Origin: a virus
DNA: 44,723 nt
Virus record (IMG/VR): IMGVR_UViG_3300045988_035831
Direction: 5' to 3' (one strand)
Shown here: positions 3,054 through 44,723 of the stretch, piece by piece
Position numbering within the stretch: position 1 is the first letter of the stretch
Layout of the letters: the number at the start of each line of letters is the position of its first letter
Translations under genes and position numbers: made by a program
The notes under the pieces: model-generated
What the model was told of the DNA's origin: nothing
The model's database searches: none
Seen by the model: only the letters and a program-made list of their open reading frames with translations

Positions 3054-3096
3054 AAAAAGTAAGGAGAGGATATTTTTACCCTCTCCCATTTTTTAA
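3052..3096. terminator. Bidirectional rho-independent terminator.
   Basis: Stem ggagagg (3063-3069) / cctctcc (3080-3086), flanked by A7 on the left and T6 on the right. It sits between convergent genes ending at 3053 (+) and 3093 (-). Confidence 0.7.
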
Positions 3097-3824
3097 CAAA
3101 AATCTTCTTTTACAACCCTTTCAAGTAGTTTTATCACATATTCTGGTGGAGTTCGTTTGCCACCCTCCCAGTTTTCTATGCTCCTTTTAGGAATGCCATA
3201 TTTTTCAGAAAAAGCTTGCTGCGTAAGTCCAGATAACGTTCTAATTTCGTGAAAATCAAGAGGATCTGAAGGAACTTTTTCGGGAAATACATCCTCTTCT
3301 TTTACCTGATATGTGAAGAATCCCATTGAGGACGGAAGGATTCTGAAATAGAATACCTCATCCTCTTCTTCTATCCAGGTTTGCTGTAAAAATATTTTCG
3401 GACACCATTCATCTAATGCAAACTTTTCATCTGAATCAGAGTAAACAACATAAGAACATAAATTTCCTGTGTCGGATTTCATTCTCTTCATCTCGTTATA
3501 GATGAATCTGGTCCTGACATATCTAACTATACTATGCACTTGTTCTACTCTGAGTTCTGGAAATAAGGCTTCGATTTGCTTATAAATCTTATTCCACAGA
3601 CATGCATGGTACTTACTATCTAATTCAACCGGTATGTCGATATAACCGCTGCTACGAACTGACAAAAATCGGTACACTGCATCAATTATTTCCTCGTCTC
3701 TAACCGGAGAAATCAATTCTGCATCATCTGGAAAATCAAATGGCAAAAGGCTTGATTTCTCCTGATTCTCAAGATCCTGCTTTACCATGCTCAAGAATTT
3801 TTCGTATTCATATTTTTTCAACAT
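3093..3824 (-). CDS. Unknown N-terminal domain fused to a C-terminal XRE/MqsA-HigA-like HTH (moron gene B).
   Basis: 243 aa. The C-terminus IRTLSGLTQQAFSEKYGIPKRSIENWEGGKRTPPEYVIKLLERV is a classic XRE-type HTH. It starts 1 nt after gene A. Confidence 0.85.
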   Translation of the reverse strand: MLKKYEYEKFLSMVKQDLENQEKSSLLPFDFPDDAELISPVRDEEIIDAVYRFLSVRSSGYIDIPVELDSKYHACLWNKIYKQIEALFPELRVEQVHSIVRYVRTRFIYNEMKRMKSDTGNLCSYVVYSDSDEKFALDEWCPKIFLQQTWIEEEDEVFYFRILPSSMGFFTYQVKEEDVFPEKVPSDPLDFHEIRTLSGLTQQAFSEKYGIPKRSIENWEGGKRTPPEYVIKLLERVVKEDFC

Positions 3825-3825
3825 C

Positions 3826-4269
3826 TTATTTCCACTCCATCTTTTCTTTATAATCGTTCAAAGCTTCTTTAAATTTTCTTTCGCAAATATTGTTTTTACA
3901 ATCAATATCACTATTTAATTCAACGTCTAATTCTCTTGGACTGTAAGCATAATAACGGTTTTCGATAAACCATTTTGCTTCCTTGATCTCGTAAATAGTC
4001 TCCATGGCTTTTTTCATGCGCTCCGGCATTTTCTTTCTGCCTTTGGATTCATGAAAATTAATGCAACTGTTTCCATACTCGATCATTTTCTTGCGGATAT
4101 CCTCAGCCCAGGCGATCTGTTTTGGACTGCCAACCAGTTCCGGTAATTCTTTACACATACCTTTTGCTTCCCTCCATGCTTTCTTGAGACCAGAGGAAAT
4201 AGACATTCTCATTTTCTTGACTAACTCCCATGCTCTTTTCATTATTGCTGATAGATTATATTTCTTCAC
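3826..4269 (-). CDS. Helical K/E-rich protein of unknown function (moron gene A).
   Basis: 147 aa. GTG start with AAGGAGG 8 nt upstream. Motifs IMKRAWELVKK, LKKAWREAK and GSPKQIAWAEDIRKK. Confidence 0.85.
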   Translation of the reverse strand: MKKYNLSAIMKRAWELVKKMRMSISSGLKKAWREAKGMCKELPELVGSPKQIAWAEDIRKKMIEYGNSCINFHESKGRKKMPERMKKAMETIYEIKEAKWFIENRYYAYSPRELDVELNSDIDCKNNICERKFKEALNDYKEKMEWK

Positions 4270-14032: not shown

Positions 14033-17000
14033 ATGGCTGCTGATGGCTCAGTCATTATTGATACCAGGATGGACACGTCAGGTGTTCAAAAAGGCGTATC
14101 AGCTATAAAACAGTCATTTAACGGCCTTGGGAGTGCTGTAAAAAAAATCGGTCTGCTAATTGGCGGAGCTTTTGCTGTCGGTAAATTGGTACAGTTTGGC
14201 AAAGAGTGCGTGGAACTTGGCTCTGATCTGGCAGAAGTACAGAACGTGGTCGATGTTACATTTACAACCATGTCTGACAAGGTAAATGAATTTGCGAAGA
14301 ATGCCATGACATCTGCCGGCCTGTCAGAAACGATGGCAAAACGGTATGTCGGCACGTTCGGAGCAATGTCCAAGTCGTTCGGATTCTCGGAACAGCAGGC
14401 TTACGATATGTCAACGGCTCTGACACAGCTGACTGGTGATGTGGCATCATTCTATAACATCAGTCAGGACTTGGCTTACATCAAGCTGAAATCAGTGTTT
14501 ACAGGTGAGACCGAGACATTGAAAGATCTCGGCGTGGTAATGACCCAGACTGCTCTCGACCAGTATGCGCTTGCAAACGGCTATGGCAAAACCACGTCTG
14601 AAATGACTGAACAGGAGAAAGTTGCTCTCCGCCTGGCTTTTGTACAGAAACAGTTATCGGCTGCATCTGGAGACTTCATTCGTACTTCTGGTAGCTGGGC
14701 GAATCAGGTAAGAGTTATGCAGTTGCAGTTGCAGTCTCTCAAGGCAACAGTCGGACAGGGGCTGATTAATATTTTCACACCTATTCTGAAAGTTATTAAT
14801 ATCTTGCTAGGTAAACTGGCAACTCTGGCGAATGCTTTCAAAAGTTTCACGGAGCTTATTACTGGAAAGAAATCATCAGGCCAGACAAGCGGAAGCGGCG
14901 CAGGTCTCACAGGCGATGCAAGTGGCGTGCAGGATACGGCAGATGCTTACGGAGAAGCGGCAGATAACGCTAGTAAGTTAGCGGATTCTACGGAAGATGT
15001 TGCCGATGCCACAAAAGATGCGGCGAAAGCGGCGAATGGATATCTTAATCCGCTCGATGAGATTAGCAGATATTCTTCTCAGACTGCAACTTCTACTTCC
15101 TCTCCATCTGCCGGAAAAGGAACTGGAGAAACATCCGGCGGCCTTGGTGGAACCGTTGGGAATGTAGACTATGGAAATCTGGCAAAAGGTGAAGATACTC
15201 TCTCAAAAATGAGTCCGGTTCTTGATGGAATCGTTAAGCGTTTTAAAGAACTTGCAGACCTTTTCAAAAAAGGCTTCTGGGAGGGCCTTGGCGATTATAA
15301 GCCTATGCTGAAAGATCTTAAAAAGAACATAAATTCGATAAAAAAGTCTTTAAAGAACATATTCACTGATCCGGCTGTTTTAAATGCATCAAGCAAGTTT
15401 GCTGATTCGTTAGCATTGAATTTGGGAAAAATAACCGGTTCTATAGCAAGAATTGGGCTGACTATAGCGCAGAACCTTGTCGGTGGAATAGCAAAATACT
15501 TATCTCAAAATACGGACAGGATAAAAAAATATATCGTTGATATGTTTAACATCGGAACGGATATCTCAGATATCATCGGAAACTTTTCAGTTGCTTTTGC
15601 AGATGTTTTTTCTGTTTTTGGAGGAGAGACGGCGCAACAGCTGACAGCTGACATTATCGGAATTTTCGCTGAGATTGAAATGACCGCTACAGAGCTTTGT
15701 GCTAAGTTAGGCCGGGATATGCTGAACATGATTGCAAAACCGTTCATCGATAACAAAGATCTCTTGAAAAGTGCTATCGAAGGATCACTGAAAGTCATTG
15801 AAACCGTAACAAGCGGCATCCTTTCAACGATACAGACGCTTGGCGATCTGATACAGAAACTCTATGACGAGCATTTAAAACCGTTTTTTGACTCAATTGC
15901 AAACGGAATCTCAAGCATATCAAAAACAACGCTGACTGTATATAACACATACATTCTTCCGGTTTTACAAGGATTAGCGGACAAGCTGAAAGGCTTAATG
16001 ACAGGTACACTCGGCGAAACGCTTGCAAAAATTGAAACATTCTTGGGGAAAATTATTGATGTTCTTAAACTCCTCTGGGAAAACATATTAGTACCGCTTA
16101 TAAACTGGATTATAGCAAATGTCGTTCCGGTACTTGCTAAGATTGCAGATATGATAGGCACAAAAGTCATAAACATCGTAAAAACGCTCATAAAAGTGAT
16201 CGGCGACATAGTTGACGTGTTGAGCGGAGTAATTGACTTTATAGTCGGCGTATATACGGGAGATTGGGAAAAAGCATGGAACGGTGTAAAAGGCATCGCA
16301 GAAGGAGCCTGGAACCTGATTAAGGACATCATTCTTGGTGTTTGGGAAACTATCAAATCAGAGACACAGGGTGCGTTAGACATTGTAAAAGGTGTTATCG
16401 AACTTGTATTTAATGCAATTAAGTCAATAGTGTTTACAGCTTGGGACTACATCAAAACTTGCACTACAAACGCTCTGAGTGCATTAAAAACTACGGTATC
16501 AACTGGATTTAATGCGATTAAATCTAAAATTTCAAAAACATGGAGCAGTGTAAAAACTAAAACAGCTCGAATCTGGGATAGTATATCTACGGTTCTTTTT
16601 GGAAAATTGGAAAAAATAAAAAGTGCTATAGTTGATAAATTTACGTCGGCAAGGGATACCGTTGTATCCGTTTTTGAAGGAATAAAAGATACTATTAAAA
16701 GCACACTTAACAGTGTAATTGAGATCGTTAATGGAGCAATCGGAACTGTAAACAGTGCCATTGGTGGAATTGAATCGGCATTTTCATTTGGACCGTGGAA
16801 AGTGCCGACTCCGTTTGGCTCAAAGACCATAGGGTTCAGTGCACACTTTCCACGAGTACCGACAGTTCCGTACTTAGCAAAAGGGGCAGTCATTCCACCG
16901 AGATCAGAGTTCCTTGCAGTCTTGGGCGATCAGAAGCAGGGCAACAACATCGAAACACCGGAAGCTTTGCTTAGAAAAATCGTCCGTGAAGAAACAGCAG

Positions 17001-22210: not shown

Positions 22211-22230
22211 GTTAGTCACAGTTAGTCACA
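22211..22230. repeat. Tandem perfect arm-type repeats (GTTAGTCACA x2) overlapping the integrase stop.
   Basis: gttagtcacagttagtcaca read directly from the sequence. Confidence 0.6.
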
Positions 22231-23387
22231 AATGGGACTTTTATTTTCTCTATTTCTTCCCGGAGTTCTTCCAGTGTCCTGTGGCCGTACACAGCGTTCG
22301 TGACATCGTTTCCGAACGAATGTCCCAGCATCCTCTTCCGGTCGTTCTCCCGGACTCCGTATTTTTCGCACAAGGCAGAAAAGGTATGTCGGCAATCGTG
22401 CGGCGTGTGCTTCGGGTTGCCGGTTATATTCAAGCGTTCCAGTGTAGGGTAGAAGAGTTTATCCCTGTGATGCTTTTGCGTATACATTAGAAGCTTTCCT
22501 TGAGTTGCTAGTTTTGACTGGACAAAGCTATATACGGCTGAATGAATAGGTACAATCCTGTCTTTTCCGGCTTTTGTTTTAATACCGCCTTGATAATATT
22601 TTTCTTCGAGATTAATTGAAAGCTTTGATACTTCGCCGATTCTCCAGCCAGAATAACACATGATCAGAATGAGCTGTACTTCTGGATCATCGGTGTTATT
22701 CCAGAGGATTTGCAATTCCTCATCCGAAAAGGGCGTGCCGTGTTCCGTATCATGAGGTGCATTGTTCCGAACATAGAGAGCTTTGTTTTCCGTGACAATT
22801 TCAGCATACATGGCGTACTTGTACATCTGCTTAAACAGTGTCAGTATCATCATTACGCTTTCTCTTTTGAGTGGACAGGTGTCTAATACCTCCTGCATGT
22901 CAGGAGCCTTTAAATCCTCAAATACGCGGTTGTGGAGTACTGCGCAGTTTGAATATCCATTCCGGTATGCGCTCTTCGAGCTGTATGATAGTTTTGTTCC
23001 CTCAGGGAACTTCCATTTCATGAATTGCTCATATACCTCTGAGAACGTCAATTTGTGCGTTTCCGGGTGTCTTTCCTCTGCGCCCTTAAATGTATTGTAG
23101 TCTGACAGAATGCGTCCTATAAGGGCGTCTGCGTCCGTTGTAGGGGCAATCTCAAGCTCTTTTTCCATGCCTGGCTTGTACGTCCCGGCTTTGTAAGCTG
23201 TCAGAACGGCGAACCCTTTCAGATAGTCGTCAACGTAGCAGATCGCAGGCGGGCGGATCACTTTTCCTGTTATGCCGTCAATCGTTGCCGGTGGGTGCAC
23301 TGCATAGCAGTTTCTTCGACCTTTGCCGAGATAACGGATAGACCCGAAACTATTTGGCAATTTCGGGTACTTCTTTCTTTTTGCCAT
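22212..23387 (-). CDS. int: Tyrosine integrase.
   Basis: 391 aa. Catalytic motifs WRIGE (Arg), HDCRHT (His-x-x-Arg) and LGHS...VYGH (Tyr). SD AAGGAGGA. Confidence 0.95.
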   Translation of the reverse strand: MAKRKKYPKLPNSFGSIRYLGKGRRNCYAVHPPATIDGITGKVIRPPAICYVDDYLKGFAVLTAYKAGTYKPGMEKELEIAPTTDADALIGRILSDYNTFKGAEERHPETHKLTFSEVYEQFMKWKFPEGTKLSYSSKSAYRNGYSNCAVLHNRVFEDLKAPDMQEVLDTCPLKRESVMMILTLFKQMYKYAMYAEIVTENKALYVRNNAPHDTEHGTPFSDEELQILWNNTDDPEVQLILIMCYSGWRIGEVSKLSINLEEKYYQGGIKTKAGKDRIVPIHSAVYSFVQSKLATQGKLLMYTQKHHRDKLFYPTLERLNITGNPKHTPHDCRHTFSALCEKYGVRENDRKRMLGHSFGNDVTNAVYGHRTLEELREEIEKIKVPFVTNCD

Positions 23388-23402: not shown

Positions 23403-23432
23403 ATAAAAACAGCCCCTGCCGTTAAGCAGGAG
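23403..23432 (-). terminator. Rho-independent terminator (minus strand) between the OB-fold gene and int.
   Basis: On the minus strand: CTCCTGC-ttaacg-GCAGGGG followed by ctgTTTTTat. Confidence 0.6.
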
Positions 23433-23442
23433 CTAGTCTGGT

Positions 23443-24012
23443 TTACTCAATCTCGTCAATGTCAAAAGAATATCCAAGGACTTCTCCAACATCTGTGCAT
23501 TTTCCTTTTAATGTTACTTTATCGCCTTTGGTAAGAGATGCTGCCTTTGATTTTTGCTCGTCGTTTTTAATATTACACTGTACGCCGATGATTTCAAAAT
23601 CGCCGTCAGCTGTGAGGCTGATGTATTTTCCAGAGGCATCAATGTTGCTGAGATTTCCAGTGATCTCAAGATATTTGCCTTTGTATTTGTCAGATGCACC
23701 CATGGCGTTACTATCAAGATCGGACATCATATCATTAACAGAAACAGTAGTGTACTCGATTGGCGCAGCTTCTTCTTTTGGTTTAGTAGCAGTTTCTTTC
23801 TTTTCTGAAGAAGTAGCGGTTGCTGCGCTTTTATCTGATTCCGAATCACTTTCACCAGCTACAGCTCCGATGATAGCTCCGACAAGGATTATCAGCACAA
23901 CCCATTTGAGTTTTCCGCCTTTTAATTTCTTTCGGCATTGCGGGCAGACCTTAGCATCTGCCGGAATCTCTGTTTTACAATACTTGCATTTCTTTGTTTT
24001 TTCTTCGCTCAT
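23443..24012 (-). CDS. Zinc-ribbon, TM, S/T/E-rich linker and extracellular OB-fold-like domain protein.
   Basis: CKYCKTEIPADAKVCPQCRKK, TM segment WVVLIILVGAIIGAVAG, then AMGASDKYKGKYLEITGNLSNI (tRNA_anti-like OB pattern, from memory). Own SD; it starts 3 nt after the regulator gene. Confidence 0.85.
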   Translation of the reverse strand: MSEEKTKKCKYCKTEIPADAKVCPQCRKKLKGGKLKWVVLIILVGAIIGAVAGESDSESDKSAATATSSEKKETATKPKEEAAPIEYTTVSVNDMMSDLDSNAMGASDKYKGKYLEITGNLSNIDASGKYISLTADGDFEIIGVQCNIKNDEQKSKAASLTKGDKVTLKGKCTDVGEVLGYSFDIDEIE

Positions 24013-24015
24013 GCT

Positions 24016-24720
24016 TTATTTCCCTCCAATGACGTAGTTTTCATATTTTTCTCTTATTTTTGCAAGTTCTCTTTGCCTGATCGGGACGATCGCGCCAGAT
24101 ACCATCGTAAAAAAATGGCTTACTTCGCTTACCTCGTCCATATTAACTATATAGCTCTGGTGGCAGCGCAAAAATCTTCCGTCAAGACTCTTTTCGATAT
24201 CATTGAGCTTTCCTCGTTCCTTGTGCGATATTCCGCACGTGCAATGGATCATTATGTATTTGTTCTGGCTTTCGATGTATTCAATATGCCGGAATTCAGC
24301 TCTGTGAAAGTAGTCCTTGTTCTTGATAGTAAGCGTTTTTTCACGAATATTTTCAAGCGTCTGCTTAACAACTGAATACATTCTTCCATGCTCAGAGCCT
24401 TTAATGATGTAATGAACCGGCAGCACATCAAGTGCATCAAATACATATTCTTTGCGTTCTGTCCAAAAAGTGATATTTCCATAGTATCCGATTTTTCTTA
24501 ATCTTTTGGCAATCTCTATGCCATTTTCTCCGTTAATGGAGACATCAAGAATTATTATGTCATACCATTCACCATCTGAAACATCGTCGATCAAAGGCTT
24601 TCCGCTGGTGTAGGTGGTTAATGTATATCCACCATCACCATGCTCTTTTAGATATCGGTCAATGCTATTTTTGAAAATCTCAATCCGTAAATTATCATCG
24701 TCACAAATCGCAATTTTCAT
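24016..24720 (-). CDS. Orphan response regulator: receiver domain plus LytTR DNA-binding domain.
   Basis: MKIAICDDD (acidic pocket), IIILDVS (phospho-acceptor Asp), ITFWT, YIIKG (Lys). The LytTR part is HRAEFRHIEYIESQNKYIMIHC...FLRCHQSYIVNMDEV. The start was moved to ATG 24720. Confidence 0.9.
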   Translation of the reverse strand: MKIAICDDDNLRIEIFKNSIDRYLKEHGDGGYTLTTYTSGKPLIDDVSDGEWYDIIILDVSINGENGIEIAKRLRKIGYYGNITFWTERKEYVFDALDVLPVHYIIKGSEHGRMYSVVKQTLENIREKTLTIKNKDYFHRAEFRHIEYIESQNKYIMIHCTCGISHKERGKLNDIEKSLDGRFLRCHQSYIVNMDEVSEVSHFFTMVSGAIVPIRQRELAKIREKYENYVIGGK

Positions 24721-24842
24721 GTAAATCATTCCCTTGTAAACATTGTTTTCGACATTTGCAAAAAAAAGTGTTTAAATATGTTATTTTTATTATAGCATCG
24801 TTAAATTTAGTTGTAAATAGACGTTTTGAGGTGATTTATGAA

Positions 24843-25217
24843 ATGAAAATAATCAAAAATATTCTAATTATAATAGGAGCTGTGCTTTTGCTTAATTACA
24901 TTGTTTATTTACCAATGTGTGTAGACGATTATATCCGTGAAGAGTCAGAAGTGTATTCTGTCCAAAATGCGTACAGATCTTCTACCCTACATAAGAATAG
25001 CGCCCATGAAATAAAGCAGACCATGCTGCCGTTTTTATTCGCCCTGCCACTAAACAGAAAAGACTATATCTTTGATGTTACGAATAATTTCTATGCAATC
25101 ATAAACATATCGGTGTATATCTGGCAGTTGCCAAGGGCGAACATTAGTGATATAATAGCAAAAACGAACGAATGTTCGGTTATATTTCCCGCAAACCGGG
25201 CATATACTGTAATGTAG
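24843..25217 (+). CDS. Membrane-anchored protein of unknown function, in AT-rich DNA.
   Basis: ATG 24843 lies 7 nt after GAGGTGA. TM segment ILIIIGAVLLLNYIVYL. It is divergent from the LytTR gene. Confidence 0.65.
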   Translation: MKIIKNILIIIGAVLLLNYIVYLPMCVDDYIREESEVYSVQNAYRSSTLHKNSAHEIKQTMLPFLFALPLNRKDYIFDVTNNFYAIINISVYIWQLPRANISDIIAKTNECSVIFPANRAYTVM

Positions 25218-25245
25218 GTGGTAGTTGCGACAGGGAGGGTTATTT

Positions 25246-25344
25246 ATGGATTATAAAAAGGAAATTATTGAGATGGTTGAAAAATGCACGAATAATCATT
25301 GGATAGAAGTGATTTATATATTTGTGAAAAGGCTAATCGGATAA
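25246..25344 (+). CDS. 32-aa peptide.
   Basis: GGGAGGG lies 7 nt before the ATG. MDYKKEIIEMVEKCTNNHWIEVIYIFVKRLIG. A terminator follows. Confidence 0.5.
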   Translation: MDYKKEIIEMVEKCTNNHWIEVIYIFVKRLIG

Positions 25345-25348
25345 CATT

Positions 25349-25390
25349 AAAAAAGACAAGGGTTTGCGCATTGCCCTTGTCTTTCTTTTT
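25349..25390. terminator. Bidirectional rho-independent terminator.
   Basis: agacaaggg / cccttgtct forms a 9-bp stem, flanked by A6 on the left and TTTCTTTTT on the right. Confidence 0.8.
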
Positions 25391-25751
25391 ACTTATTAGA
25401 AATCATGTCAATAAGTTTTTCTAAATTGTCCCATCCCTCATCATCCAATCTGGCTAATGCAGACACGAGACGGTGTCGGAAAGAATCTTCTCCAGATTTC
25501 ATTACGTCTGCAAGCATGGCAGAAATTTGTTTGTCTTTAATTCCGGGTACAAACATATCTCCGTTTCCAGTTCTGAGCCATTCTTCACTCACTCCAAACT
25601 CTCTGCATATAGATTTGATAACAGCATCTGTTGGATTTCTTAAACCAGTTTCATAATTAGTAATGGTATTTCCCTTTACTCCAATTATGTCTCCAAATGC
25701 TGTCTGAGTGAGATTCTGGGATTTGCGCACTTGTTTGATTCTGTCTTTCAC
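25389..25751 (-). CDS. CI-like XRE-family repressor without a peptidase domain.
   Basis: HTH LTQTAFGDIIGVKGNTITNYETGLRNP. GTG start with GGAGGTG 7 nt upstream. Confidence 0.9.
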   Translation of the reverse strand: MKDRIKQVRKSQNLTQTAFGDIIGVKGNTITNYETGLRNPTDAVIKSICREFGVSEEWLRTGNGDMFVPGIKDKQISAMLADVMKSGEDSFRHRLVSALARLDDEGWDNLEKLIDMISNK

Positions 25752-25771: not shown

Positions 25772-25800
25772 AATATATCATAAAAAACTCACAAAGTCAA
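25772..25800 (-). promoter_or_regulatory. Leftward promoter for the repressor.
   Basis: On the minus strand: TTGACT, a 17-nt spacer, then TATATT. Confidence 0.65.
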
Positions 25801-25850
25801 TATTTAGTGTTGACATATAACTCACGTCGTGATATTATAAACTCACAAAG
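25785..25850. promoter_or_regulatory. Three operator-like repeats (AAACTCACAAAG, TAACTCACGTCG, AAACTCACAAAG).
   Basis: An exact 12-mer occurs at 25785-25796 and 25839-25850, with a variant at 25818-25829. They overlap the -35 of the leftward promoter, the rightward promoter spacer and its +1 region. Confidence 0.6.
25810..25838 (+). promoter_or_regulatory. Rightward early promoter.
   Basis: TTGACA (25810-25815), a 17-nt spacer, then TATTAT (25833-25838). Confidence 0.75.
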
Positions 25851-25865
25851 CAAGGAGGTGAAAAC

Positions 25866-26219
25866 ATGAAATACAGTCCGCTCGGCAGTAAAAAAATGAT
25901 ATCTCAAACTTTCAATGGTGATTGCTTGAAAACCACTTTTGAAAGAGAGAACGAATTGAAGTCCGAATATGAAATTTATGTAAACTGGATGAATCCGGAT
26001 CAGTTAGCAGAAGTTTCATTTCAGTTGCCATTCCACGATTGGCAGACACTTGAAAAGTCTGAGGTTTGGAAAAATCTGGATGAATTTCTTTCGGAAGTTC
26101 AAATCGAATATATTCCGAAGTACCGCCAAGTCCAACCAATTGTAGCGGAAAAGGTTGTGTATAGAAGTCTGTTAGGTTCTTTAGTTGCATTCTTTCGTGA
26201 TAAATTGATTCACCAATAG
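25866..26219 (+). CDS. First early ORF (117 aa) with no recognisable HTH. It overlaps a longer antisense ORF.
   Basis: AAGGAGGTGAAAAC-ATG lies directly downstream of the early promoter. The acidic, soluble-looking sequence overlaps 25912-26505(-) by 308 nt. Confidence 0.5.
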   Translation: MKYSPLGSKKMISQTFNGDCLKTTFERENELKSEYEIYVNWMNPDQLAEVSFQLPFHDWQTLEKSEVWKNLDEFLSEVQIEYIPKYRQVQPIVAEKVVYRSLLGSLVAFFRDKLIHQ

Positions 26220-26505
26220 CGCGCCCTTTTAAACATGAATAATGGGTTCCACTATACACGTAAGAAATATTTACGATTGATATGGCAATTCTGGAACGAT
26301 TGATAATTTCAAAATGAACAATCAACTCATTATTATCTTTCAACTTGAAACCAATAGGAATAAACTCTATTTTTTTTCGAGATTGGAATAAGTTCCATAC
26401 AGTTCCAGCAGACCCTATTAACCCAAGCATAAAGGAAACATTTTCAAACGTAATGATTTCTTTAGCCGATCTTAAAATTGAAACAATTTGATTTATTTTA
26501 ATCAC
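25912..26505 (-). CDS. 197-aa ORF with an N-terminal TM segment and a beta-rich domain. The coding status is unresolved.
   Basis: A 594-nt stop-free frame in ~35% GC DNA. TM segment VSFMLGLIGSAGTVWNLF. It is the only long ORF covering 26220-26505. GGAGGTG abuts the GTG start, so initiation geometry is poor. Confidence 0.45.
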   Translation of the reverse strand: MIKINQIVSILRSAKEIITFENVSFMLGLIGSAGTVWNLFQSRKKIEFIPIGFKLKDNNELIVHFEIINRSRIAISIVNISYVYSGTHYSCLKGRAIGESIYHERMQLKNLTDFYTQPFPLQLVGLGGTSEYIRFELPKEIHPDFSKPQTFQVSANRGMATEMKLLLTDPDSSSLHKFHIRTSIRSLFQKWFSSNHH

Positions 26506-40552: not shown

Positions 40553-42190
40553 ATGGACTTAACGCCTAAGCAGAAAGCGTTTGCAGATGAATATATAAAG
40601 AATGGCGGAAATGCATCTGATGCCGCAATGAAAGCCGGATATTCAGCAACAGTTGCCAAGAATGCAAAGAAAAACATCTTGGAAAAACGTGGAGTTTTTG
40701 AATATATAGCAGAAAAACAAACTCTTCTGGAAAAACAAAAAGGCACTGATATCATGTCTCTGGCAGAAATCCAGCAACGCCGCTCTATGATTGCAAGGGG
40801 CGAACTGACTGATTCATTCGGATTTGCTCCGGATTTCTCCGATCAGCTAAAATCTATGAATGATTTGGAAAAAACGCTTGCTATAAAAGAAGCCAGAGAA
40901 GAAAAGCGGAAAGCAGAAGAAAAAGCCAGATTACAAAGTGAATATCATATTGATCTGGACATTGTCCCGGACGTATTTCATAAAATGATTAGAGATATCC
41001 GGAAAAAGAAACATAGCGAATACATTCTCCCTGGCGGACGTGGTTCCATGAAGTCCTCAACTATATCTCTAATTATACCGGAACTGCTGAAGAATAATCC
41101 GAACATGCACGCCCTGATTCTGCGAAAAGTCGGAAACACCATCAAAGATTCGGTTTATGCTCAGATGAAATGGGCTATTGATAAATTAAATCTAAATGAG
41201 GAATTTGTGTGCAAGGTATCTCCTATGGAGATTACGTATAAGCCTACTGGACAGAAGATTTACTTTCGTGGTGCTGACGATCCATTAAAGATTAAGTCTA
41301 TCAAACCAGAGTTTGGATATATAGGTATCGTCTGGTTCGAGGAGTTAGATCAGTTTTCTAATCCAGAAGAAATCCGAAACATTCAGCAGTCTGCTATTCG
41401 TGGTGGCAATGAAGCGTATAAATTCAAGTCATTCAATCCGCCTAGGAGTAAGAATAACTGGGCGAATGAATATACGGCAGAAGCAGAAGAAAAAGATAAA
41501 AATGTAATGGTTGTGCATAGCACATACCTTGATTTAGGGATTGAACAAGAGTGGCTTGGCGACGTATTTCTTGCAGATGCCGAACATCTGAAAGAAGTAA
41601 ATCCAGATGCTTACGACAACGAGTATTTAGGATATGCCAACGGAAATGGTGGAAATATCTTTGAGTATATCGAAGAAAGAACTATCACAGACGAAGAGAT
41701 TAGCCATTTTGATAGAATTTATCAGGGGGTTGACTGGGGCTGGTATCCGGACAAATATGCTTTCTCCAGAATCTATTATGATTCAGCTAGAGAAACAATC
41801 TATTTCATTGATGAGATTTATGAAAACAAAAAATCAAATGAATGGACTGCGAATGAAATCAAGCGAAGACAGTATGATGATTACGAAATTACTTGTGATT
41901 CTGCCGAACCTAAATCAATCAATGATTATAGAGACTTAGGACTTCCGGCAAGAGGGGCAATCAAAGGACCTGGAAGCATTGAGTATTCTATGAAGTGGCT
42001 GCAAAGAAGAAAGCTTGTGTTTGATCCAAAAAGAACACCAAATGCTTGCAAAGAGTTCAAAAAGTACGAATACGAACGCGACAAAGACGGAAATATTTGC
42101 AGCGGATATCCGGATAAGGATAATCATTTAATAGATTCCGTTCGGTATGGCTCAGAATCATTGTGGAGAAGACGAGGTAACAGTGCATAA
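40553..42190 (+). CDS. Terminase: a small-subunit (Terminase_2-like) N-terminal domain fused to a PBSX-type large subunit.
   Basis: aa 1-~130: LTPKQKAFADEYIKNGGNASDAAMKAGYSATVAKNAKKNILEK...SLAEIQQRRSMIARGEL. aa ~150-545: PGGRGSMKSS (Walker A), IVWFEELDQF (Walker B), FNPP. It is one uninterrupted ORF. Confidence 0.9.
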   Translation: MDLTPKQKAFADEYIKNGGNASDAAMKAGYSATVAKNAKKNILEKRGVFEYIAEKQTLLEKQKGTDIMSLAEIQQRRSMIARGELTDSFGFAPDFSDQLKSMNDLEKTLAIKEAREEKRKAEEKARLQSEYHIDLDIVPDVFHKMIRDIRKKKHSEYILPGGRGSMKSSTISLIIPELLKNNPNMHALILRKVGNTIKDSVYAQMKWAIDKLNLNEEFVCKVSPMEITYKPTGQKIYFRGADDPLKIKSIKPEFGYIGIVWFEELDQFSNPEEIRNIQQSAIRGGNEAYKFKSFNPPRSKNNWANEYTAEAEEKDKNVMVVHSTYLDLGIEQEWLGDVFLADAEHLKEVNPDAYDNEYLGYANGNGGNIFEYIEERTITDEEISHFDRIYQGVDWGWYPDKYAFSRIYYDSARETIYFIDEIYENKKSNEWTANEIKRRQYDDYEITCDSAEPKSINDYRDLGLPARGAIKGPGSIEYSMKWLQRRKLVFDPKRTPNACKEFKKYEYERDKDGNICSGYPDKDNHLIDSVRYGSESLWRRRGNSA

Positions 42191-43640: not shown

Positions 43641-44723
43641 ATGGCAGATAAACCAGTAACAAGGGAAGAAAAATATCTTGCGTACTTGACAGGTGATTAC
43701 AATGGCGAACTCCCGAAACCAATCACGAGAAAAGAGAAGTATTTATACGAATTATGTTTGAAAGGAATAGGCGGTGAAATCTCGCCGGAAGAAATCAAAG
43801 CCGCAGTAAATGAGTACCTTGAAAAGAATCCGGTCAAGCCCGGAGCCACGGCAGAACAGGTACAGCAGATCGAGCAGAATAAGACGGACATTGGTTCACT
43901 GAAAGAGGAAACTGGTTCGCTAAAGGAAGAAATAGTTGATTTAAAGAAAAAGTATGAAATGACAAACTATATGTTATTTGCTGATGAATATTCGAAAAAA
44001 AAATATATAAATGGCGTATTAACAAACATGAACTTTTGGAAATCAACTAATATACTAAAACTTGACAAGCTATATGATATGTATTCTCCCGCAGTAAATG
44101 GAATTGCTGTATTTTTTGACAAAAATGAAGAATATATATCAGACGTTGAATTTAAGTATAATCTTCCTGTTTTAAAAGCATCATATCCCGCTAATGCCGT
44201 GTACGTTGCGTTTTCATATCAGCAAGATTATATGGAATCATACAATAATATGATGTATGTGATAAGAACAAACAATTATAATGTAAGAACGAGAAGCTTT
44301 TACCCGACAACAAAAAAAGAAGTTGGTAAAAGACCTAGTATTTATATCTATGCAAATGATACGCAAGATGAAATTTTATGGAAACTCGTAGATGCATTTT
44401 TAACAAGAGATTGTGACGTTTATTTTGAGTCTTCTACGTATGTTTTTGATGATGTTTTCGTGGATTTGTACGAAAAATACAAATATAGGCAGTATGCAGA
44501 ATTGCCAATTGGGGGCGGCTGTAGATATTATTTTAACGGCTCAACATTAATCGCAAATGTAGATAAAATGAGAGAAAAGGGTTACGAAGCAACTATTGAT
44601 TTATTGTCATGTATAGAAAGCTTGAATGCAGAGAACTACGAATTATATGACGGGATACTTATAAATAATGGTGGAGTTTATGTCGTGCATGACGAAAGCG
44701 GAGGAAAACCCACTAAGTATGTA
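43641..44723 (+). CDS. Fibre/tailspike-like protein, N-terminal 361 codons. The ORF runs off the window end and continues in frame at 1-468.
   Basis: Manual translation with no stops: MADKPVTREEKYLAYLTGDYNGELPKPITRKEKYLYELCLKG (duplicated TRxEKYL motif), then coiled coil QIEQNKTDIGSLKEETGSLKEEIVDLKKKYE, then an AT-rich C-terminal domain. It is absent from the ORF track because no stop lies before the window end. Confidence 0.8.
   Translation, partial: MADKPVTREEKYLAYLTGDYNGELPKPITRKEKYLYELCLKGIGGEISPEEIKAAVNEYLEKNPVKPGATAEQVQQIEQNKTDIGSLKEETGSLKEEIVDLKKKYEMTNYMLFADEYSKKKYINGVLTNMNFWKSTNILKLDKLYDMYSPAVNGIAVFFDKNEEYISDVEFKYNLPVLKASYPANAVYVAFSYQQDYMESYNNMMYVIRTNNYNVRTRSFYPTTKKEVGKRPSIYIYANDTQDEILWKLVDAFLTRDCDVYFESSTYVFDDVFVDLYEKYKYRQYAELPIGGGCRYYFNGSTLIANVDKMREKGYEATIDLLSCIESLNAENYELYDGILINNGGVYVVHDESGGKPTKYV
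44628..44723. repeat. Terminal direct repeat, copy 2 (identical to 1-96).
   Basis: See copy 1. Confidence 0.95.

Follow-up and report, generated by a model that had tools for sequence, protein, structure and literature searches.

What use does a phage make of a response regulator when it carries no sensor kinase to go with it? The question is raised by IMG/VR virus record IMGVR_UViG_3300045988_035831 (the window: the whole 44,723-nt stretch that was analysed), in which a gene for a protein joining a phosphorylation receiver to a LytTR DNA-binding domain lies in the lysogeny module, with the integrase gene (int) on one side and a CI-like helix-turn-helix (HTH) repressor gene on the other (Table 1). 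The regulator shares an operon with a gene for a zinc-ribbon membrane protein that resembles superinfection exclusion (Sie) proteins, and a second membrane protein and a 32-amino-acid (aa) peptide are encoded divergently. An earlier note on this DNA had described the same arrangement, including the position between int and CI, and had read it as a possible phage listening device. We find the regulator intact, with nothing missing from the phospho-acceptor pocket or the LytTR domain; a near-consensus promoter of its own precedes the operon, and a terminator closes it. What is new is a widespread clade of such orphan LytTR regulators that is specific to phages and has a conserved candidate operator. 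In full, the reading suggested by the sequence is that temperate Blautia phages carry, as an optional cassette at the edge of the lysogeny module nearest CI, a phage-specific LytTR regulator without a kinase, and that a host signal drives it; to this we give about an even chance.

The protein is a bona fide response regulator of the LytTR (LytR/AlgR/AgrA) family. Its receiver scores 40.4 bits against Pfam Response_reg (PF00072; cut-off, 30.2) and its C-terminal domain 57.2 bits against LytTR (PF04397; cut-off, 22.6), both above the cut-offs. An AlphaFold model (predicted local distance difference test, 84.9) comprises a (beta-alpha)5 receiver and a beta-rich C-terminal domain. The best Protein Data Bank matches of the whole model, found with Foldseek, are full-length ComE (4CBV) and the LytTR domain of AgrA (3BS1/4XQJ), with TM-scores of 0.81 to 0.85 and root mean square deviations of 1.4 to 1.7 Å. 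The residues of phosphorylation are in place: when 27 relatives, the most distant at 28% identity, are aligned, the acidic pocket (D7, D8), the phospho-acceptor (D59), and the lysine (K107) are invariant and the threonine (T87) is at least 90% conserved. The model places all of these residues where strands beta1, beta3, beta4, and beta5 end on their C-terminal side. The earlier note's account of both domains and of an intact pocket is thus borne out. Residues of the LytTR domain are likewise nearly invariant across the relatives. We rejected assignment as an AgrA, LytR, or BtsR equivalog, all of which fall far under their NCBIfam cut-offs (AgrA, 38.9 against 400; LytR, 57.8 against 375), and the PHROGs family that the protein matches (phrog_8810, E = 7.6e-37) is labelled "unknown function."

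We then asked whether a kinase accompanies the regulator. The window is a complete circular temperate phage genome: its two ends are a 96-nt direct repeat (1-96 and 44628-44723), which marks it as a complete genome from a circular assembly with a unique length of 44,627 bp, and Pfam profiles identify terminase, portal, capsid, and tail genes, a CHAP endolysin, a tyrosine integrase, the CI-like HTH repressor, and a replication module of DUF927 primase and PIF1 helicase. Pfam finds no HisKA or HATPase domain among the 20 largest open reading frames (ORFs) of this genome (at least 130 aa), and a HATPase_c_5 profile built from 26 kinases that neighbour chromosomal relatives of the regulator has no match in any of the six reading frames (best E = 0.05, 7 bits), in agreement with the earlier note. 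The same kinase profile detects an AgrC-type kinase in none of the 182 phage and prophage loci of the regulator clade (2.39 Mb), against 70 of the 79 loci examined around chromosomal relatives (about 25 to 37% identity). Those 26 kinases are immediate neighbours among 40 chromosomal relatives, and a HATPase_c_5 kinase is encoded directly downstream of one regulator that is 37% identical (P0053). At 52% identity and above, all regulators whose context could be assigned were found in phages or prophages, one on a short contig of a metagenome-assembled genome (L012) being left aside. The concern that related prophages might always carry an adjacent kinase, which would have made this copy a truncated remnant, is answered by phage loci that lack one in 182 of 182 cases.

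The gene is also widespread and under constraint. Prophages of Blautia fusiformis (99% identity) and Blautia obeum (70%) carry it, the family appears in 219 and 164 IMG/VR stretches, from 44-kb and ~80-kb phages, and the B. obeum variant occurs in 1,556 indexed blocks of an assembly collection; the temperate phage of the window is thus very common among Blautia of the human gut. Cultured lysogens include Blautia fusiformis CLA-AA-H217 and two genome assemblies with the B. obeum-type variant. Contexts vary in recombinase (tyrosine, serine, or none nearby), in replication module, and in genome size (44 kb or ~80 kb). Among 87 full-length regulator genes of the 44-kb groups (window type plus B. 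obeum type) there are 67 distinct alleles, the median pairwise ratio of nonsynonymous to synonymous divergence (dN/dS) is 0.13 within the window-type clade, and between clades the receiver (dN, 0.22) and the LytTR domain (dN, 0.25) have diverged to nearly the same degree. Purifying selection acts on both domains of the regulator, and its orphan, kinase-less state is a conserved property of a phage-specific clade, not the result of truncation; a truncated two-component operon is contradicted by both the selection and the kinase-profile data. The clade descends from an AgrC/ComD-type two-component family. Its closest non-phage relatives (35 to 40% identity) include four proteins of 350 to 365 aa (P0048, P0050, P0054, and P0068; loci L263 and L264) with an unusual architecture, in which a receiver and LytTR domain are followed by an extension of ~120 residues; P0068 has a precomputed match to Hpt (PF01627), and the genes lie beside a MatE transporter gene with no adjacent kinase.

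The DNA between the regulator and the divergent gene contains a candidate operator. The -35 and -10 elements of the regulator operon promoter (P_RR) are kept in all clades, and downstream of P_RR, 32 to 55 nt upstream of the regulator start codon, an alignment identifies AATGGCGAAA as the best-conserved leader element over four clades whose leaders have otherwise diverged. A box motif with G at the position where the window has T is present in 176 of 177 phage-clade loci examined. In three sister clades (87 loci) the element takes the form of a direct repeat, TGGCGAAAT-N12-(T/C)G(G/A)CGAA(A/T)T (9-N12-9, 21 bp from start to start), with conserved boxes, a variable spacer, and one site per locus. 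Experimentally defined LytTR sites are two 9-bp repeats 12 bp apart and a few base pairs upstream of a -35 element, often with extended -10 promoters (PMC6193735); the spacing of the sister-clade repeats and their position just upstream of a -35 agree with these sites, and we consider the conserved box a candidate LytTR half-site. The -35 in question would be that of a predicted promoter toward the divergent membrane-protein gene (P_div), whose -35-like TTGCAA (24756-24761) abuts the box in the window and whose TG-extended -10, TGTTATTTT (24779-24787), has counterparts at the equivalent place in the other clades (TGTTATAGT, TGATACAAT, and TGCTATAAT). The -10 elements of P_div and P_RR lie 1 nt apart in the window (1 to 3 nt over the clades) on opposite strands, so that the two promoters overlap face to face.

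A scan of all viral contigs gave 115 evaluable matches to the double box, 82 of them directly upstream of the regulator family. The others were set aside as further sites in phages: of these 33, the 25 that were inspected have unrelated contexts from other samples, mostly GC-rich and coding in appearance, which fits chance. In the window there are 24 one-mismatch matches to the box against 18.9 expected, none of them paired, and no box lies near the CI or early promoters, either in the window or in the 8- to 10-kb flanks searched in sister phages. The motifs that the earlier note had picked out fared less well as binding sites. TTGTAAA followed by GTTTT is literally present twice, with spacers of N4 and N5 in place of the N3-4 given there, and is not conserved: the copy at 24811 is the -35 TTTACA of P_RR, and the copy at 24734 is replaced even in phages that are 97 to 99% identical. 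Two occurrences of ACATT(T)G are trivial as a binding site, and inverted repeats in the regulator leader are not conserved between clades.

How might such a regulator work? It would be made constitutively in the lysogen and phosphorylated at D59 by a host donor, because a phage genome without a kinase leaves only a host source for any phosphorylation. Since the kinase-paired chromosomal relatives use AgrC/ComD-type HATPase_c_5 kinases, phosphorylation from the host is the natural inference, and by ancestry the donor would most likely be a noncognate kinase of this type; acetyl phosphate could serve instead. Orphan receivers are able to use acetyl phosphate, and Blautia are acetogens. The phosphorylated regulator would then bind the TGGCGAAA(A/T) box or boxes ~30 to 60 nt downstream of its own promoter, where they adjoin the -35 position of the overlapping opposite promoter, and would thereby activate the divergent membrane-protein gene. 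Its own operon (the regulator and, where present, the Sie-like protein) would be damped at the same time, by occupancy of positions +30 to +60 of the transcript and by keeping RNA polymerase off the overlapping promoter. The net result would be prophage surface and exclusion proteins that track a host signal, possibly with host promoters as additional targets. Listening to the host in this manner is plausible as a hypothesis. The narrower proposal, that the donor is an AgrC/ComD-type host kinase of peptide quorum sensing or envelope stress and that prophage expression follows host cell-cell signalling, we consider rather unlikely on its own.

Several observations weigh against a host-driven regulator acting through this box. 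The window is the only locus with ATGTCGAAAA, a G-to-T change in the box core that could be a regulatory mutation or an assembly or sequencing error, and its clade has a single copy of the box only. The box sequence is unlike published LytTR consensus sequences, and P_div is a weak prediction that a consensus promoter scan did not return. Binding, phosphorylation, and expression of the regulator are all inferred from sequence. We saw no host relative closer than ~40% identity, and a specific donor kinase therefore cannot be named. Finally, the divergent membrane-protein gene also occurs in a related phage that has no regulator (MT835739) and thus has no strict need of it.

That phage is informative about the neighbouring genes as a whole. 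In the window, the TAA stop codon of the regulator (24016-24018) is separated by 3 nt from the ATG, at 24012, of the 189-aa gene, which has its own Shine-Dalgarno (SD) sequence (GGAGGG), consistent with the cotranscription that had been proposed earlier. The 189-aa protein has an N-terminal DZR zinc ribbon on the cytoplasmic side, one transmembrane segment, and an extracytoplasmic OB domain of the tRNA_anti-like family (PF12869, E = 1.7e-22), and it matches the PHROGs family annotated as "superinfection exclusion Sie-like" (phrog_8545, E = 6.4e-21). Its profile match, transmembrane segment, and location between int and CI are those of the Sie-like family, to which these features assign it; PADLOC defence profiles have no match among the proteins of the module. 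After the regulator, 82 loci have the zinc-ribbon Sie-like gene and 8 have a gene for an unrelated membrane protein of the SHOCT type; another 86 have no co-oriented gene there, and a convergent endolysin gene is found instead. The gene downstream is thus replaced or missing in 94 of 176 loci among regulators that are 62 to 100% identical. MT835739 (locus L179) has the Sie-like gene, the membrane-protein gene, and the peptide, together with a CI-like repressor of a different allele and a different recombinase, and lacks the regulator, from which it follows that the regulator is an optional cassette and the Sie-like protein a cargo, not a dedicated signalling partner. The cotranscribed protein of the earlier note is therefore optional cargo and no fixed partner.

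The divergent genes are present as the earlier note had them, a 124-aa membrane protein and a 32-aa ORF with a strong SD sequence, and they appear to belong to different units. The membrane protein matches no family in Pfam, PHROGs, PADLOC, or NCBIfam, and its homologues come from the same phages only and are unannotated apart from one labelled "DUF3139." Its slot beside the regulator is kept, with two unrelated families in different clades. Among largely 83 to 98% identical relatives (P0115-P0223) its length ranges from 70 to 173 aa through differences at the C terminus; the 3' end of the gene, which overlaps the peptide promoter, appears to undergo frequent frameshifts and indels, with only the first ~100 residues constrained. 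We regard the gene as a candidate output of the regulator. The peptide promoter is near consensus (TTGCCA-17-TATAAT with a TG; 25128-25156, within the 3' end of the membrane-protein gene), and the 32-aa ORF and CI converge on a common terminator-like hairpin. Across phages the peptide keeps its N terminus (MDYKKEIIEM) and varies at its C terminus, and the C-terminal type follows the CI allele (Spearman 0.41, p = 5e-50; 50 distinct pairs) and not the clade of the regulator (Spearman 0.08). Identical peptide/CI pairs are found beside different regulator clades, and at least 10 peptide/CI types are swapped among otherwise near-identical phages. This covariation makes the peptide part of a swappable immunity cassette, and a role as a small, immunity-specific modulator of CI may be open to it. 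It is accordingly no component of the regulator system, in contrast to the picture in the earlier note, and its presence in MT835739 without a regulator points the same way. A three-gene signalling module of regulator, membrane protein, and peptide was rejected on the same grounds: the peptide tracks the CI allele, it occurs with the membrane-protein gene where there is no regulator, and the membrane protein belongs to two unrelated families.

Other roles for the regulator have to be weighed against this one. The regulator might act mainly on host promoters, competing with or substituting for a host LytTR regulator and rewiring traits such as bacteriocins, autolysis, or competence-like functions, with the local site serving autoregulation only. 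Such regulon capture, a form of lysogenic conversion, would account for a DNA-binding domain conserved as much as the receiver and for an optional moron with its own promoter, and a phage-borne CdtR is reported to influence host toxin genes (PMC4944984; PMC6127314); the sole conserved site that we found is local, however, and we saw no close host paralogue with which it could have sites in common. We view capture as a minority prospect. A role in the lysis-lysogeny decision, with the phosphorylated regulator tuning induction to host density, is suggested by the adjacency of the gene to the CI cassette in every clade and by the precedent of phage-encoded quorum-sensing receptors (PMC11945551). 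It is nonetheless disfavoured, and we judge it improbable, because no box lies close to the CI or early promoters in the window or the sister-phage flanks, a relative with a matching lysogeny layout (MT835739) does without the regulator, and the CI cassette is freely swapped beside an unchanged regulator. The lack of a candidate site at the CI/early switch and the absence of the regulator from otherwise similar phages argue in the same way against the core role in lysogeny maintenance that the earlier note had entertained.

The remaining alternatives concern how, or whether, the regulator is driven at all. A two-gene operon of a LytTR regulator and a zinc-ribbon membrane protein resembles the LytTR regulatory systems (LRS) HdrRM and BrsRM, and the zinc-ribbon/transmembrane/OB protein could keep the regulator at the membrane, as its sensor or its inhibitor, with no kinase needed. 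That this is the arrangement here is decidedly doubtful: the downstream gene is nonhomologously replaced or missing in more than half of the loci (94/176), it is found without the regulator and matches a Sie-like phage family, the strictly conserved receiver pocket is not required by a kinase-free mechanism, and the operon promoter has the repeats on its downstream side, where an LRS has them upstream. An orphan receiver under a strong constitutive promoter could also act as a phosphate sink, draining phosphoryl groups from a host kinase and silencing its pathway with DNA binding irrelevant; for that a receiver-only protein would be enough, whereas the LytTR residues here are nearly invariant and dN is equal in both domains (0.22 and 0.25), which leaves a decoy very improbable. 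Least credible to us is the decaying remnant of a captured two-component operon, for which the missing kinase speaks and nothing more, against 67 distinct alleles in 87 genes with a median dN/dS of 0.13 (window-type clade), retention in four or more clades and in phages of two genome sizes, and the lack of a kinase fragment in any frame.

Among characterized systems, CdtR of Clostridioides difficile is the closest functional analogue. It, too, joins a receiver to a LytTR domain with an intact aspartate and no adjacent kinase, its phosphodonor is unknown, and substitution of the phospho-acceptor (D61A, dead; D61E, partly active) indicates that this aspartate is needed (PMC6699598). Its locus, CdtLoc, has been found on the temperate phage phiSemix9P1 and is transcribed from the prophage (PMC6127314). 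CdtR lies beside cargo genes under its control, and the phage regulator likewise lies beside cargo genes, which it may control; orphan status and an intact pocket are features that it has in common with CdtR-like orphans. CdtR differs in controlling toxin genes and in its location, which is the chromosome in nearly all strains; its occurrence on a phage is described as an isolated case. The regulators described here make up a clade specific to phages, present in hundreds of contigs of gut phages, with CI and membrane-protein genes as neighbours. The similarity to CdtR does not go beyond the family level. The 59 phage records matched (E ≤ 1e-5) do not include phiSemix9P1, whose presence in the collection was not checked.

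Comparison with AgrA, ComE, and PlnC turns on the missing parts. The two-domain fold is common to all, kinase-paired relatives of the phage regulator have HATPase_c_5 kinases, and the sister clades have 9-bp repeats 12 bp apart; unlike those regulators, the phage protein is unlinked to a kinase, a peptide-precursor gene, or an AgrB/ABC exporter, and its box does not resemble their consensus. No AgrB or ABC-transporter match was found in the 20 largest ORFs or the genes of the module, and the charged N terminus of the 32-aa ORF (MDYKKEIIEM) is not a hydrophobic, signal-like one. We therefore rejected an Agr/Com/Blp-type peptide quorum-sensing system, which would lack both kinase and exporter and whose peptide would track CI and occur without the regulator. 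The C. difficile phage phiCDHM1 carries agrB-agrD-agrC and no regulator (PMC6127314): it is likewise a temperate Firmicute phage with an incomplete Agr-type set that needs host components, and it is a mirror image, with kinase and peptide genes there and the regulator alone here. Like our locus, the LRS have a membrane-protein gene after that of the LytTR regulator and an extended -10, and like the sister clades they have 9-bp repeats with 12 bp between them. In those systems a receiver is not reported, the membrane inhibitor is obligatory, and repeats upstream of the operon's own -35 provide positive feedback (PMC6193735), in contrast to a phage regulator with a receiver, an optional partner, and repeats downstream of the operon promoter; on these three differences (a receiver, a variable or absent downstream gene, and repeats downstream of P_RR) we rejected identity with the HdrRM/BrsRM type. 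VqmA-Phi of VP882, LuxR-type receptors, and AimR are alike in concept, as phage transcription factors that read a density-related signal (PMC11945551). Each of them is a one-component receptor that binds a ligand and controls the lysis-lysogeny switch, whereas the phage regulator is a two-component-type, presumably phospho-dependent module that has no ligand-binding domain and gives no sign of controlling the switch.

LytTR proteins of phages receive no more than a passing mention in reviews (PMC11945551), and we found no paper characterizing a phage-encoded orphan LytTR regulator, only brief mentions. Known phage listening depends on one-component receptors (VqmA-Phi, LuxR-type, AimR), so a regulator fed by a host kinase would, if true, be a different wiring and a direct path for host signalling to steer prophage genes; it would be the first virus to eavesdrop through a borrowed kinase alone. 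The family is carried by very abundant Blautia phages, and the existence of cultured lysogens makes the listening idea testable. Should the regulator merely tune a local exclusion gene, it would be an ordinary moron with an unusual regulator, and interest is high only if a host kinase proves to drive it.

Table 1. Features of the regulator module and of a second cassette in the window
Feature	Position	Strand	Description
Two-gene cassette	3093-4269	minus	147 aa, then 243 aa with C-terminal HTH_3
int	22212-23387	minus	
Intrinsic-terminator-like hairpin	23410-23435	minus	11 pairs and T-run; ends regulator-Sie operon before int
Cotranscribed cargo gene, 189 aa	23443-24012	minus	zinc ribbon, transmembrane segment, tRNA_anti-like (OB)
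Response regulator, 234 aa	24016-24720	minus	receiver, ~residues 1-125; LytTR, ~residues 129-230
Conserved box	24746-24755	minus	ATG(G>T)CGAAAA; regulator leader; conserved block 24745-24759
P_div (predicted)	24756-24787	plus	toward membrane-protein gene; read from sequence
P_RR, regulator operon promoter	24789-24817	minus	TTTACA-17 nt-TATAAT, upstream TG, 11/12 consensus matches
Single-pass membrane protein, 124 aa	24843-25217	plus	divergent from regulator
32-aa ORF	25246-25344	plus	SD GGGAGGG
CI-like HTH repressor gene	25389-25751	minus	

Elsewhere in the genome, the minus-strand two-gene cassette lies inside the plus-strand head-morphogenesis module and has no PADLOC matches other than weak ones to HTH_VI/RmrA; a second moron is one possibility, a regulator/toxin pair another. 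Two ORFs overlap in the interval from CI to the early genes (25866-26505), one of 197 aa on the minus strand, with a transmembrane segment and a weak match to phrog_17486, and one of 117 aa on the plus strand; presumably only one of them is real. Promoter-like sites are present on each strand at 25772-25862. The terminase ORF (40553-42190, plus strand) encodes a single protein of 545 aa that has both a small-subunit domain (Terminase_2, residues 3-111) and the ATPase and nuclease domains of a large subunit (Terminase_3/Terminase_3C). A close relative whose regulator is 98% identical (L009) encodes a 369-aa RVT_1 reverse transcriptase (14412-15760) beside a 79-aa ORF and near its tail-fibre genes, with no equivalent gene at the matching place in the window, which suggests a diversity-generating retroelement in that phage.

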